From Octopus vulgaris (taxonomy: Eukaryota): a DNA stretch of 64,000 bases. Every line of letters begins with the position of its first letter. The stretch's first letter is position 1. Under the pieces are notes generated by a model that was not told the origin of the DNA, did not search any database, and worked only from the letters and a program-made list of their open reading frames with translations. Position numbers and translations under genes: made by a program. Below, in pieces: positions 27,035 to 31,590 of the stretch. The DNA lies in contig OX597814.1 in NCBI GenBank assembly GCA_951406725.2, forward strand, positions 38,440,001 through 38,504,000. The letters run 5' to 3'.

Positions 27035-27900
27035 TTTATCTGATAATGTTGACATAATCAACGACAAGGCTGAATTTTATAACTCTGCTTTACTTAAAGT
27101 AGGCTATACAGTTAAAGTTACCAACATTAATTCCATTCAATCTTATTCTACCTTTAGTAATGGAGACATTAAATCTAGTTGTAAGGATATAAGGATATAT
27201 AATTTATTCGCCAACAGCACGCAGAGGAAGTTTTCTTTACAATGTAAGGGAGATAACCGGCTTTCTAAGCCTCTTTTTTACTTCTAAAGGTAAATCGATA
27301 TATTTTATTGATAATTACACTAAAAATAAGGCAACAAATAGTAAAACTATTTTGGTTGATTATTCTTTATGGGAGACAAATTAAATCAAATCTTTCATTC
27401 TAGTTTTGGGAAGTTATTATTAGGAATTTTCCAATGAATTCTAGGTATTACTATATTAGCAACTCTCACACGGTTAGGATTGGTTTTTGCAAACACAAAA
27501 AACCTTTCACAAATTAACTCCCCATATAATATTAGTCTATCAAATAAGAATCCAATTACTAATACTAACATTAATTTAGCTAATACTAGCCATCTCCCTA
27601 GAAATATTAGTAACAAAGTTATTGTCTATGAAGTCAATTCCAACAGAATTAAGTTTATGTCTAGTAATTCTAAGATTAAAAACTCTATATACTAGTGTAA
27701 AATTACTTCAGGTACCAATGACTTTTTCATATAGGTAGTTATTTTCAGTTATCTAAAATAATTTCTAATCATTATTCTACATTTAGGGATAGTAATAAAC
27801 GCAGCAGGCTACGGGTACATGCTGATATTTGCTCAAATTATAAAGAGGATTACACAATAACAAATTGAAAGTACAGTTCTATATTCAAGAGAAAAGGAAC
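27035..27900 (+). mobile_element. Penelope-like element remnant (RT thumb, linker, GIY-YIG endonuclease)
   Basis: DKAEFYNSALLKVGY; RNFPMNSRYYYISNSHTVRIGFANTKNLSQI (the PLE HFP..IFN..TVK.SYS..N motif); KNSIY*CKITSG...(Y)IG...ISNHYSTFRD (GIY-YIG). Stops and frameshifts throughout. Confidence 0.7.
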
Positions 27901-27904
27901 TATG

Positions 27905-28178
27905 TACCTTGCTTATATTTGACGGATATTTCTCCTTCTTTGTTGGTAGCACAACGTTTCGGGTGATATACTGTCCAGACTTCATCGGGTGTGTTGTGGA
28001 CATTTTGAATATGGGTTCTCATGCCTAAGGTATCATTATTCCACTGCCTGGAATCTAAATTGGGGTCTTGGGGTTAGCAGCCCTGGCTCTTAACCACTAC
28101 GTCCAGGGGCATATAACGCAGTGGTTAACAGTGCGGGCTGCTAACACCAAGTTTCCGAGTTCGATTCCAGGCAATGAC
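27905..28178. repeat. Head-to-head inverted repeat of a tRNA-like head + hammerhead-like module (left arm and centre)
   Basis: 28042-28102 is the reverse complement (~75%) of 28116-28176, which carries A-box-like TAACGCAGTGG, loop CTGCTAA and B-box GTTCGATTCC. 27915-28035 is the reverse complement of 31455-31578. Minus-strand hammerhead-like core ACAC-CCGATGA..GAAACGTT-GTG at 27950-27993. Confidence 0.8.
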
Positions 28179-28187
28179 ATGTATATT

Positions 28188-28325
28188 AATAATAATAATA
28201 ACAATAGTAATAATAATAATAATAATGATAGTAATAATAATAATAATAATAATAATAATAATAATAATAATAATAATAATAATAATAATAATAATAATAA
28301 TAATAATAATAATAATAATAATAAT
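28188..28325. repeat. (AAT)n microsatellite, 5' flank of the Dong/R4 insertion
   Basis: Directly visible. Confidence 0.97.
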
Positions 28326-31266
28326 CTCCCAAGAATAAAAATAAACGAAATAACAACACCAATTATAAACAGCAAAAACCTAGCCGTCACTGAACTAGCC
28401 ACTGAAACAAAAAAAAGTGATATCACTGAACTAAATGACTTGATATACGCAGCAGCCACTGCAGCCACAAAAGAAGCTGGATACTCACCCAAACCCGCCC
28501 AAACAAGAGTACCACCACCCAAACAAACCCTGTGGATAAATAACATCCAAAACAAAATTAAAAAAATTAGAAAAGACCTGTCGATTCTTAATGAAATCAG
28601 CAAAGAATCAACGCTACTGAGCAACAAAAAGAGAACAAAAATGCTCCGCAAATATAACATCACAGAAAAAGATTTGCCGGAGATAAAAGAAAAGCTGAAG
28701 CAAGATATCCTTGCCAAAGATCAAAGGATCCGCCGGTACGAGAAACGCCAACGCTTCTTTGAACAGAACAAAAAGTTCAACACCAACCCCAAAAAGTTCT
28801 ACGAAGATCTGGGAAAAAATAAAATAGAAGTCACTGCAGCACCAACGGCAGAAGAATTGGAAGAATTCTGGAGAGAAATATGGTCGGCGAACGAACAGCC
28901 AAAGAAAAGGAGTATCAAAATAACAAACTCGGCATCTGAACAACTTTGGACCCCCATAACAACTGAAGAGGTCACCCAGGCACTGCAAAAACTAAGCAAC
29001 TGGAAGGCACCTGGGCATGACAAGATCCCCAACTTCTGGTTGAAATATCTAACAGGAATGCACAAAAAGCTGGCTGAAAACTTTAACAGCATACTAGCAG
29101 AGCCAGAGAAAATGCCTGAATGGCTCACGAAGGGGAAAACCATCTTAATTCCCAAATCAAATGAAACAGCAAAACCAGAAAACTACAGACCAATAACCTG
29201 CCTCCCTACTATGTTCAAGGCATTTACTGCAGTGATATCGCAAAGGCTGAACAAGCACCTGGACGAAAACAAACTGTTCCCAGAAGAGCAGAAAGGATGC
29301 CGCAAAGGCTCATATGGCTGTAAATATCAACTAATGATTAATAAAGCCGTAACTGAAGACAGCCACAGAAAGAAGAAAGGCCTCAGTATGGCCTGGATTG
29401 ACTACAAAAAGGCGTTTGATAGCATCCCCCACACATGGATCCTTGAAACACTAGCCATTAACAAAGTAGCACCAACAATCATAAAATTCATAGAGCACTC
29501 TATGAATAAATGGCGAACAGTCCTACATCTCCAAACAAAAGAGGGACTCATGAAAACCAAAGACATCCCCATCAGAAGAGGAATATTCCAGGGAGACACG
29601 CTCTCTCCACTCCTTTTCTGCTTGGCACTGTCACCTCTATCTGATATGCTAAATAGAACTGGATGCGGATATAAATGTTACGGCAAAACGATCAGCCACC
29701 TTTTATATATGGATGACCTAAAACTATACGCTGCAAATAACAAACAGCTGGAAACACTATTAAAGACAGTTCATGGATTTACCAAAGAAATAGATATGAA
29801 ATTTGGATTAGAAAAATGCGCCAAAGTAACCATGAAAAGAGGAAAACTAGTTAAAAGTAACAACATCACACTAGATAAAACCAATGAAATAAAAGAATTA
29901 GACCAAAGCCAAACTTACAAATACTTAGGAATCCATGAACTAGATAAGACACAACACACACAAATGAAAGAGAAAATAAAAAAAGAATATTATAGACGAG
30001 TTAGATCAATACTAAAAACAGAGCTCAATGCTAAAAACAAGATAATAGGTATCAACACTTTAGCTGTCCCAGTTATAAGTTACAGCTACAATATCCTTAA
30101 CTGGACACGAAATGAACTGTCCAAAATAGATAGGAAAACAAGAAAAATACTGACAGGATCTAGGATGCATCACCCAAAATCTGACATAGAAAGACTATAT
30201 ATACAACGTATAGAAGGTGGTAGAGGCCTTATACAGCTGGAAAACTACTATAAAATAACCACCATAGGACTGCAAAAATACCTACTTCAGAAGGAAGGAA
30301 AACTGATCCAGATAGCAGCAAAACACGAGCAAAACAAAAAACTGTTCTCAGTATTTAAGGAAGCTGACAAATACAAACAAAAAATCATACCACCTAATAA
30401 ACACGAAGAAGAAGAAGAAGATGATGAAGAAACAACAAAAGCTATAAAACAAATGAAATCCAAACTAAAAATAGAACAGCAACGAACCATGATAAAACGA
30501 TGGCAAGAAAAGCCCCTTCATGGTAAATACTGCACTAAACTAAACGCAAAAGAAATAGACAAAGAAACATCCCAGCAATGGTTGAGAAGCTCAGGACTCA
30601 AAGCAGAAACAGAGGGATTTTTAATTGCAGCACAAGACAAAAGCCTCCCCACCAGAAATTACCAAAAACATGTAATGAAAAGAAATATTACAAGTAACAG
30701 CAGAATATGTGGAGATGGACAAGAAACATTAAATCATATTATCTCTAGCTGCCCAGTCCTGGCTAAGAAGGAATATATTCACAGACATGACAGAGTTGGA
30801 ACCTACATACACTGGAAGCTATGCCAACAGTATGGAATAACAAAGAAAAAAGATGGTATAGGCACACACCAGAAAAGGTTACAGAAAACGAGAAAGCAAC
30901 AATACTCTGGGATATGCCGATACACACAGATAGAGAAATTAAGGCCAACAGACCAGATATAGTTGTCAGAGATCATGAAGAAAAAAATGCATTCTAATTG
31001 ATGTATCAATACCGGCAGATGACAACGTGTCTCTAAAAGAAATGGAGAAACTCTCAAAATACAAAGACCTGGAAATAGAGGTAACTAGAATGTGGAATCT
31101 GAAAACAGAAACAATTCCTATCATAGTAGGTGCATTAGGCATGATAAAAAAATATTCAGACAAATACATAACAAAAACACCAGGACTTACAAACACATAT
31201 ATCATACAGAAAATTGCACTACTAGGCACTGCACACATCCTACGCAGAGCACTTTCCATACAATAA
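28326..31266 (+). pseudogene. Dong/R4 RT-RLE ORF, open for ~840 codons, then two single-base frameshifts
   Basis: Motifs KAPGHDKIPNFWLK, NYRPITCL, EQKGCRKG, WIDYKKAFDS, GIFQGDTLSPLLF, LYMDDLKL and YKYLG. Knuckle (S)RICG..ETLNHIISSC; RHDRV. After frameshifts at ~30845 and ~30985: KANRPDIVV..LIDVSIP..KLSKYKDL (PD-D/ExK RLE). Confidence 0.93.
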
Positions 31267-31363
31267 CCATCAGAGCATCACAACAAATCACAGCACATAC
31301 CCAAGGCACACAGAGCTGCGCTCGGTAGTGAAGTGAAAGCACGCTATAAAAATAAAACTACTG
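28326..31363 (+). mobile_element. R4/Dong-clade non-LTR retrotransposon (RT + zinc knuckle + restriction-like endonuclease), 5'-truncated, inserted in (AAT)n
   Basis: Both ends abut (AAT)n. Contains a single ORF with RT and a C-terminal RLE, then a ~100-bp 3' UTR. TAA-repeat targeting is the known specificity of Dong elements. Confidence 0.92.
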
Positions 31364-31447
31364 AATAATAATAATAATAATAATAATAATAATAATAATA
31401 ATAATAATAATAATAATAATAATAATAATAATAATAATAATAATAAT
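31364..31447. repeat. (AAT)n tail / target repeat of the Dong element
   Basis: Directly visible. Confidence 0.97.
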
Positions 31448-31590
31448 ATCGAAAACTACCTTACGAATGAAAACCCAGGCTCAATTTTTTCTCAAGACAC
31501 CTGATGAAAGCCGGAGAGTATATCAGGCGAAATGTGTTAAAAACAAACAAGATGAGGACAGATATCCGTCACATGTAAATAATGCAAATA
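31448..31590 (+). repeat. Right arm of the inverted tRNA/hammerhead module (continuation after the Dong insertion), with degenerate hammerhead core
   Basis: ACAC-CTGATGA (31501-31507), stem II GCC..GGC, GAAA (31529-31532), TGTGT. The CGT of the cleavage-site region seen in the left arm is missing. Matches the reverse complement of 27915-28035. Confidence 0.7.

Follow-up and report, generated by a model that had tools for sequence, protein, structure and literature searches.

Two tRNA-like heads, each followed by a hammerhead motif, face each other in the 64,000-nt stretch of Octopus vulgaris DNA analysed here (the window) and lie close to the remnant of a GIY-YIG Penelope-like element (PLE), which raises the question of to which element these arms belong and how such a pair comes about. 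The parts of the locus are the following:

26469..27807, plus strand: fragment of another PLE family, from the RT thumb region to half of a GIY-YIG domain, unrelated to the arms
about 26609-27029: another repeat, which splits the neighbouring PLE fragment
27808..27871, no strand: 64-nt spacer, belonging to neither PLE family
27872..28103, minus strand: left arm, a pLTR of the tRNA-headed PLE with the long 3' end including the tail; 76% identity to the family consensus
28050..28103, minus strand: left tRNA-like head, with A box (28094-28103), anticodon-like loop (about 28073-28079) and mutated B box (28050-28060)
27948..27992, minus strand: left minimal type I hammerhead, predicted to be dead (U4 changed to C, stem II broken)
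28101..28185, plus strand: right tRNA-like head, with A box (about 28115-28124) and intact B box (28159-28168); 86% identity to the consensus
28186..28326, plus strand: expanded (AAT)n spacer of the pLTR, into which the RT element inserted
28327..31363, plus strand: later insertion, a 5'-truncated R2/R4-type non-LTR element with a frameshift near its 3' end
31364..31448, plus strand: (AAT)n, resumed past the RT insertion
31449..31595, plus strand: body of the right arm with the short 3' end, ATG (31467-31469) and hammerhead (31496-31538); 87% identity to the consensus

After removal of the RT insertion, the inverted repeat described in the original prediction proved to be real: its heads match at 79% over 61 nt and its tails at 72% over 125 nt, none of 1000 shuffles reached the head or the tail score, and its centre falls at about 28102-28108 (predicted, about 28108). 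The left arm is about 235 bp long and not about 190 bp as proposed, because a tail of roughly 40 nt belongs to it. Both heads are tRNA-like, with scores of 53 and 55 against 10 genomic tRNAs, compared with maxima of 36.5 over 486 control windows and 46.5 over 500 shuffled consensus heads. The expected layout of tRNA head, AAT run and hammerhead was recovered, except that the left B box is mutated and the left AAT run has just two units. The CTGCTAA loop is indeed present in both window arms, but it is a rare variant (2 of 27 sampled heads), the consensus being CTACTAA. As foreseen, the family consensus contains a hammerhead core that is damaged in each window arm, on the right by a recurrent 3-nt deletion at the predicted cut site. 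The left hammerhead lies downstream of an ORF ATG at 28022-28020, and the right head begins inside a decayed short palindrome that is typical of most 5' ends. Positions 27860-27871 may be what is left of a 12-bp target duplication (8 of 12 positions agree with 31593-31604 by eye); a script scan for a target duplication of the window copy returned a 6-mer only, which was not significant. The window copy is an old, dead insertion.

The GIY-YIG remnant itself is real, since open-frame copies of its family matched PF01541 in two of three cases tested (E 2e-4 and 2e-3, just under the cut-off). It is broken mid-domain at 27807, with no pLTR of its own and 64 nt short of the left arm, and the pair is therefore not its terminus, as had been assumed. 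This proximity is all that speaks for a terminal module of the adjacent element with divergent promoters and one arm antisense to its ORF, a reading to which we give practically no credence. The neighbour family ends in its own unrelated pLTR with a different hammerhead (consensus of 26 copies), and the unit was found within 1.5 kb of just 1 of 29 other copies of that family. The neighbour and the tRNA-headed element have no significant DNA similarity and about 20% protein identity over 46 residues. The terminal-module reading is thus refuted and the remnant is a bystander; the predicted association with a PLE held, but with a different PLE as partner.

The RT element inserted in the AAT run matches RVT_1 (E 2e-32), all five of its PDB matches are R2 or R2-length RT proteins, and the 3' ends of its relatives abut AAT runs. 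Dong of B. mori belongs to the R4 lineage and has TAA upstream, according to the accessible part of PMC3774820. The insertion predicted as Dong was accordingly confirmed as an R2/R4-type element, and its label goes by the TAA target, by which it would be Dong-like; its entry into the AAT run was a later event.

Architecture and abundance of the tRNA-headed element

Each window arm is a pLTR of another, Penelope/Poseidon-like element with an 838-aa RT–GIY-YIG ORF. The family consensus unit comprises 2,937 nt with this single ORF, and its parts follow each other in the order ORF stop, tRNA-like head, (AAT)n, ATG, hammerhead within the coding frame, and tail. The head lies about 30 nt past the ORF stop and about 110 nt ahead of the next ATG, and the hammerhead falls within the first 25 codons. 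In 27 of the 30 loci where the ORF was found (20 of 23 without the query's own locus and with 7 duplicates collapsed) the head follows the ORF end, and in 9 of the 30 it stands directly upstream of the ORF start.

RVT_1 was matched by a family copy (L084, E 1e-6), and homologues of the 838-aa ORF carry RVT_1 and PF26215, with GIY-YIG in 2 of 27. A GIY-YIG search of the family's own C-terminal piece gave no match; a 40% identical homologue (P0009) passes the PF01541 cut-off. As in EN+ Penelope-like elements, a single ORF contains RT followed by a C-terminal GIY-YIG endonuclease (the latter via the homologue), pLTRs are both direct (partial tandem) and inverted, a tail of 30-40 nt is found on one insertion end only, a type I hammerhead motif lies in the pLTR (core and stems read from the consensus), and a target-site duplication surrounds the whole unit at the family level. 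The placement as Penelope/Poseidon-like is drawn by analogy from known motifs, the ORF length and the in-frame hammerhead common with PAc of the green anole. As the reading frame is open throughout the tail, there is no need to assume a spliceosomal intron there, a possibility that was also considered.

The genome contains at least 3,310 exact 28-mer matches to the family; as 5 of 89 arms were exact, the arms would number roughly tens of thousands genome-wide (about 59,000, with a wide error). The arms sampled in the following were taken from the first 90 of the 3,310 matches listed, each of which lies on contig C1 and contains the intact 28-mer. A search for a second Poseidon-like family in the same genome, intended as a control, returned the same family at 30 of 30 loci. 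Among metagenome relatives (26 loci, 25 aligned), which are distant (28-50%), often short and single copies, none had the A/B-box pattern within 700 nt. We set aside a divergence of 0.15 for ORF-linked pLTRs, likely an alignment artefact of deletions, and a pile-up of ORF-start fragment ends near unit position 513, which is partly a product of the query's end.

Origin of the head-to-head pairs and of the short copies

Genome copies confirmed that the tRNA head and the hammerhead travel as one unit and that the head-to-head pair recurs: among 87 insertions sampled regardless of their 5' side, 57 were head-to-head, none tail-to-tail and 2 tandem. Complete pairs combine a long with a short 3' end in 49 of 51 cases (25.5 expected). 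A target duplication, mostly of 10-15 bp, surrounds the whole pair in 34 of the 51 (null mean 1.4, maximum 7); as a point against, just 2 of 30 unpaired copies have one. Given the long and short ends and the duplication around the whole, the pair is one insertion, and not a designed module of divergent promoters as originally suggested. Of the 49 long/short pairs, 26 consist of arms that are not nested either way; simple fold-back copying is excluded for these 26, and fold-back was rejected as the sole source of pairs. The N7 allele is common to both arms in 37 of 39 pairs, and derived changes are shared between arms at 3.3 times the cross-pair rate. In the window pair, the rare CTGCTAA loop is likewise found on both sides. 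This sharing of alleles could instead reflect subfamily age and not one RNA.

By analogy, such pairs match the two-site, two-strand priming shown in vitro for Anolis Poseidon, where both strands are extended by PAc, beginning at two internal sites on either side of the tail (accessible text of PMC11167929). In RNA reads of the present family, too, there are two break-off points, 36 nt from each other. The origin of inverted pLTRs and tails in PLEs has been called unresolved (PMC8557442), and the present family offers countable predictions in this respect, namely one long end with one short, about 12 bp duplicated at the target, arms that are not nested and alleles in common.

In order to explain the abundance of short copies, they could be regarded as an independent, non-autonomous SINE-retrozyme family with a PLE 3' end and its own master loci. 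Sequence from the ORF end is lacking in 127 of 139 sampled arms, ORF-less tandem arrays of the unit exist (L385/L386), and any solo pLTR could give rise to new transcripts from an internal Pol III promoter, all of which would fit such a family. We nevertheless consider it improbable: no diagnostic variant was found at the five polymorphic sites checked, the N7 allele is about as frequent in ORF-linked as in short copies (6 of 22 and 9 of 32), and the head is integral to the autonomous element, standing at both ORF ends. What would be the SINE tail consists of 5' coding sequence from the partner's ORF, so that of the two options in the original prediction the PLE using tRNA-derived promoters fared better than the separate family. 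Like tRNA-derived SINEs, the units possess a 5' tRNA-related head with A and B boxes, but they are not a non-autonomous family distinct from a partner with which it shares only the 3' tail. An independent family would differ from the explanation that we prefer, in which the pairs are pLTRs of the PLE itself, mainly in the source loci.

The tRNA-like head and the hammerhead

The unusual part of the element is its tRNA-like head, the consensus of which scored 59.5, above the control and shuffle maxima given earlier. The cloverleaf is degenerate, and relaxed ARAGORN returned a malformed fold only. Rfam hammerhead and tRNA models and ARAGORN did not bear out the prediction for the window arms, with no match to head or hammerhead in the window, at 12 loci or in one 291-nt stretch. 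A pattern search for a tRNA-Thr source gene had no matches, and in a search of genomic tRNAs Arg was best, with Ala and Thr close. Octopus tRNA-SINEs named OK, OR1 and OR2 were reportedly described by Ohshima and Okada in 1994, and OR2 is cited as a CORE SINE, whereas the body here is PLE coding sequence. The head, with tRNA-Arg as its best genomic match, is possibly the same tRNA-derived head as in OK, OR1 and OR2, and Repbase, Dfam or SINEBase may list the short unit as a SINE already. Our literature search, outside of which lay most subscription papers, Repbase Reports and Dfam, found no tRNA-headed or Pol III-transcribed PLE.

Among 63 arms reaching the head, 51 stop at consensus positions 1067-1095 (tRNA +1 being 1087) against 11% expected; the number of head-reaching arms is underestimated, because Dong-like insertions split some arms scored as starting in the AAT run. 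Three tandem junctions begin 6 nt before tRNA +1, and of the 11 unpaired copies that reach the head start, 8 begin at the pile-up. Five ORF-start copies reach the beginning of the head, of which four continue into an upstream ORF end and one stops at +1. A small palindrome lies at the same place as the 5' pile-up. The 2,937-nt unit is free of T4 runs. For the ORF, 3.4 runs were expected (P about 0.015, from three larger sets of shuffles with 0.014-0.017; a first set of 1,000 had given 0.004), a modest deficit given P 0.07 under a trinucleotide model, and G4 runs were also absent in the same comparison (1.1 expected, P 0.27). Real copies contain 0.27 T4 runs per kb compared with 0.5-6.6 in 8 distant relatives with similar T content. 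The A and B boxes are kept no better than their surroundings among copies (0.95-0.96 versus 0.95), as neutral decay predicts, so that this measure lends no support. RNA from three raw runs and one contig set had no strand bias and a depth that tracks copy number, and says nothing on start site or strand. Judged from these sequence features, the pile-up at tRNA +1 and the absence of T4 would support Pol III transcription, which is predicted as likely for the short copies and as possible for the whole element.

The head might, alternatively, be a passive relic of a SINE or tRNA pseudogene that landed in the pLTR, with Pol II transcription from upstream or tandem copies, and the pile-up might stem from RT stalling or fold-back at the palindrome or from tRNA-like RNA processing. 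A capless Pol III RNA of 2.9 kb is, from general knowledge, hard to translate; the head is read through from an upstream ORF in 12 of the 139 arms and at 4 of the 30 loci with an ORF start; and the palindrome sits exactly on the pile-up. For rotifer pLTRs with 5' palindromes at inverted junctions, self-priming is inferred by the authors in the accessible text of PMC3846280, where these PLEs bear TATA/Inr motifs. However, the palindrome stem here has only 4-5 bp, and unpaired copies begin at the head start too. Moreover, the neighbour PLE has 15 T4 runs in about 1.1 kb against none in 2.9 kb, the Dong-like ORF keeps 3 where 4.0 are expected, and the degenerate acceptor stem would speak against RNase P processing. 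We therefore regard a passive relic as unlikely.

Small deletions at the predicted cut site of the hammerhead were found in 22 of 92 arms, whereas the AAC repeats next to it had them in 7 of 98 (P 0.002), a hot spot that would indirectly support ribozyme cleavage. The lowest-energy fold of the monomer hides the cut site in a competing hairpin.

Proposed course of integration and relation to known systems

Overall, we think it probable that the locus is a pLTR pair of the tRNA-headed PLE derived from one integration, for which we infer Pol III transcription, two-strand priming and occasional ribozyme cutting. Pol III would start about 6 nt upstream of tRNA +1. The element protein would cut both target strands about 12 bp apart, and reverse transcription would be primed on each strand, one from each of two internal starts 35-40 nt apart, with the same RNA or a sister RNA as template for the two cDNAs. 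These would reach the RNA 5' end or stop early, and would be joined by microhomology, often within the small palindrome at the start. With one start site no more than about 250-280 nt away from the promoter, most products would be short SINE-like pairs. The ribozyme would be unable to cut as a monomer but would probably do so occasionally when dimeric or assisted by protein, with deletion scars as the result.

A further-reaching version is put forward tentatively and is open to considerable doubt: an autonomous coding Penelope, transcribed by Pol III over its whole 2.9 kb from a captured tRNA promoter and purged of TTTT, might itself give rise to short, SINE-like copies when priming occurs internally and close to the promoter, and the deletion hot spot might be a genomic record of minimal hammerhead cutting in vivo. 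According to the accessible text of Kojima 2024 (PMC10886601), non-LTR retrotransposons depend on Pol II and SINEs on Pol III, and elements transcribed by Pol III remain short. If true, a PLE that codes for protein, has a tRNA promoter and lacks terminators would break this rule and show how SINE-like copies can arise directly from an autonomous element.

As far as the accessible parts of the respective papers describe them, PAc of the green anole (PMC11167929) and Pen2/Pen2a of Adineta (PMC3846280) share with the present element a single RT–GIY-YIG ORF of about 840 aa, a pLTR that overlaps the ORF start with the hammerhead in 5' coding sequence, two 3' ends that flank a tail of 30-40 nt present at one end only, a 5' pLTR in inverted orientation with a target duplication enclosing the complete insert, and partial tandems. 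Unlike in these elements, 5' ends here pile up at tRNA +1, T4 runs are absent and short pLTR-only pairs dominate. The ATG here lies upstream of the hammerhead and not at stem II, and the pLTR starts with a tRNA-derived A/B-box head in place of the TATA/Inr motifs of Pen2a. The minimal type I hammerheads of metazoan PLEs (Cervera and De la Pena 2014, accessible text of PMC4209133) likewise have a 5-bp helix I, an extra nucleotide before helix II, a G10.1-C11.1 pair, a palindromic 15.2-16.2 and no loop 3, whereas their helix II has 7-8 bp compared with 5 bp and a 10-nt loop here. No mention of a cut-site deletion hot spot was found in that text, which notes pairs of hammerhead motifs 100-700 bp apart on opposite strands in Schistosoma.

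Sm-alpha and Sj-alpha of Schistosoma (accessible part of the review PMC6765202) also join a Pol III-type promoter and a hammerhead in one short repeat; they are described as non-coding, tandem, SINE-like repeats with an active ribozyme, whereas the unit here is the pLTR of a coding element with a minimal in-frame ribozyme and copies that are mostly head-to-head. A small-RNA-derived Pol III promoter in a terminal repeat is likewise found in the TRIMp3 elements Cassandra, Helenus and Ajax (Kojima 2024, accessible text). These are LTR elements that lack autonomy, possess PBS and PPT and do not exceed about 1.3 kb, in contrast to a PLE with the head in an autonomous 2.9-kb element. Animal non-LTR retrozymes (PMC7229834; bioRxiv 10.64898/2026.07.22.740005) have a type I hammerhead and a link to PLE pLTRs as well, and the accessible portions of both texts yielded no mention of a Pol III promoter. 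They are defined as tandem head-to-tail arrays in which every unit has a hammerhead, an arrangement seen here in only 2 of the 87 sampled insertions; one headless array of about 10 units is present in the genome.

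The window pair and the neighbouring GIY-YIG remnant

The inverted repeat predicted to remain after removal of a Dong-like insertion was present, with its centre near 28102-28108. Its arms, each one copy of a tRNA-headed unit, were 79% identical in the heads and 72% in the tails, and 0 of 1000 shuffles matched either score.

Left arm of the window pair: 27872-28103
Right arm of the window pair, minus the insertion: 28101-31595

The left end was long (with tail) and the right end short (without), as in pairs of the family, and both arms shared a CTGCTAA loop that was rare among sampled heads (2/27); the target duplication of the window pair was not significant. 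A 3-kb reverse transcriptase (RT) element with an RVT_1 domain, whose PDB matches were R2-type proteins, sits within the AAT run of the right arm. Its relatives terminate at AAT runs, in several cases inside the tRNA-headed repeat itself, which would fit a Dong-like element. Young Dong-like elements, whose 3' ends are 96-99% identical, have entered the AAT spacer of this unit time and again (L022, L097, L098, L103, L169; window 28327-31363), parting head from ORF start; one element thus parasitises another's promoter region.

The original prediction that the pair ends the adjacent GIY-YIG element did not hold. The remnant (27035-27807) is a copy of a PLE family (1,606 candidates) in which the completed ORF is followed by a pLTR of the family's own, containing a long-stem hammerhead (26-copy consensus), and a tRNA-headed unit lay within 1.5 kb of only 1 of 29 other copies. 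The window copy breaks off mid-domain, is not resumed elsewhere in the window, and is a bystander to the pair. A GIY-YIG match just below the Pfam cut-off was obtained in 2 of 3 tested open-frame copies. With its YRDD-type RT, this family resembles the tRNA-headed PLE at only 20-30% (L032-L060 consensus; window 27035-27807); its hammerhead, whose helix II is very long, lies about 300 nt past the stop codon. One or two other interspersed repeats, pieces of which recur at several loci, are inserted in the window copy at 26609-27029.

An autonomous PLE with a tRNA-headed pLTR

In several arm copies the end of a different ORF lay immediately 5' of the head. When that ORF alone served as query, the sense head lay downstream in 27 of 30 loci (20 of 23 once the locus of the query was dropped and 7 duplicates were collapsed), so that the suggested PLE linkage was borne out, with another PLE. 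Walking copies in the 5' direction yielded a single 838-codon frame, which starts with an ATG directly after head and AAT run and continues through hammerhead and tail. In 9 of 30 loci, including 4 partial tandems, the head also stood directly 5' of the ORF start; because it adjoins both ORF end and ORF start, the repeated unit is a pLTR of an autonomous PLE. PF26215 was detected in 27/27 homologues, one of which, at 40% identity, cleared the GIY-YIG cut-off; judged by motifs and layout, the element would fall in the Poseidon clade.

The peptide pattern encoded by the ribozyme core is kept in an 847-aa homologue at 56% identity. The trace of the in-frame hammerhead in protein P0005 (residues 17-33), T-P-D-D/E-G followed by P-K-R, is preserved at 56% protein identity and could allow embedded ribozymes to be searched for from protein alone.

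The architecture is that of an already known PLE kind. A Pol III promoter with a hammerhead is known from Schistosoma (PMC6765202), and a Pol III promoter within a terminal repeat from TRIMp3 elements (PMC10886601). For a tRNA-derived head within the pLTR of an autonomous PLE, no report was found in the papers searched.

Seven copies of one element fragment with shared flanks (L070, L075, L077, L079, L080, L081, L087), spread over 2.5-9.0 Mb of contig C31, are a segmental or higher-order repeat. At L329, L333, L334 and L349, template jumps led from a finished pLTR onto one AC-rich spot near ORF unit position 513, possibly a third priming site, although the pile-up is partly a query-end artefact.

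Head-to-head pairs and short copies

An exact 28-mer from the ribozyme 3' side occurred 3,310 times (reversed control, 0). The first 90 of the 100 matches listed, all on contig C1, represented 87 insertions, of which 57 had an inverted partner upstream, 2 were tandem and none tail-to-tail; the head-to-head pair, whose recurrence the original prediction had raised, does recur in this sample. Long and short 3' ends were combined in 49 of 51 complete pairs (25.5 expected), and a target duplication, mostly of 10-15 bp, surrounded the whole pair in 34 of 51 (crossed flanks: mean 1.4, maximum 7) vs only 2 of 30 unpaired copies. Both arms carried the same allele at position 7, a polymorphic ribozyme site, in 37 of 39 pairs. 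Judged by sequence, the pair is a single insertion. Fold-back copying was rejected as the source of 26 of the 49 long/short pairs, where the short-ended arm extends further 5', so that neither arm is a fold-back copy of the other. The anole Poseidon protein, PAc, cuts and extends both strands from two internal starts bounding the tail (PMC11167929), and PLEs are known to be marked by an inverted pLTR, a tail and a duplication (PMC3846280; PMC8557442). L119 was the only near-perfect palindromic insertion seen; both of its arms are short-ended and its flanks mirror one another as inverted copies, which suggests a different repair route.

A separate SINE-retrozyme family, the other option proposed, was rejected, as the position-7 allele had a like frequency in short (9/32) and ORF-linked (6/22) pLTRs. 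Short copies would instead be expected from internal priming if, as we infer, one of the internal starts is located 250-280 nt from the RNA 5' end; solo pLTRs may also be transcribed again.

Hammerhead cut site and tRNA-like head

Compared with the minimal type I hammerhead (PMC4209133), the family consensus has the full core, with a 5-bp helix I, an extra nucleotide, a 5-bp helix II and a palindromic 15.2-16.2; in the best monomer fold the cut site is buried in a competing hairpin. The window right arm lacks GUU, as noted originally, and this 3-nt deletion is not private: it had 400 exact occurrences, on both position-7 backgrounds. Among 30 deletion loci, the readable partner-arm sites comprised 6 that were intact, 4 with the same deletion and 1 with a different deletion. 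Among ORF-found loci, 22 of 92 arms had small deletions at the cut site, vs 7 of 98 for the neighbouring AAC-repeat stretch (P 0.002). A reverse transcriptase jump over cleaved RNA is the likely source of the deletions at the predicted cut site; the rival explanation is slippage on GT microhomology. PAc inserts in vitro without cleavage (PMC11167929), so dead ribozyme variants can still spread. About 10 headless pLTR units, each from AAT run to tail, stand in tandem at L385/L386 (G000:C2 about 2,733,000-2,736,100), a retrozyme-like array with a cut-site deletion in several units, a short 3' end and an inverted tail fragment at its 5' side.

The head scored 59.5 against 10 genomic tRNAs (486 control windows, at most 36.5; 500 shuffles, at most 46.5), its best match being Arg, with Ala and Thr close; no tRNA finder called it. 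The head start was reached by 63 of 139 arms, 51 of which end within 29 nt around tRNA +1, vs 11% expected from the loss rate within the head, and three tandem junctions, free of inverted-arm ambiguity, begin 6 nt before +1. Runs of four T are absent from the 2,937-nt unit; for its ORF, synonymous shuffling predicts 3.4 (P about 0.015; only 0.07 under a trinucleotide model). The Dong-like ORF had 3 (4.0 expected) and the neighbouring PLE 15 in about 1.1 kb; real copies had 0.27 per kb vs 0.5-6.6 in 8 distant relatives whose T content was comparable. Against a Pol III reading, runs of four G are likewise absent (1.1 expected), a small palindrome coincides with the 5' pile-up, and 4 of 5 ORF-start copies reaching the head start continue upstream. 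On balance, short RNAs are probably transcribed by Pol III, while Pol III transcription of the full-length RNA seems rather unlikely.
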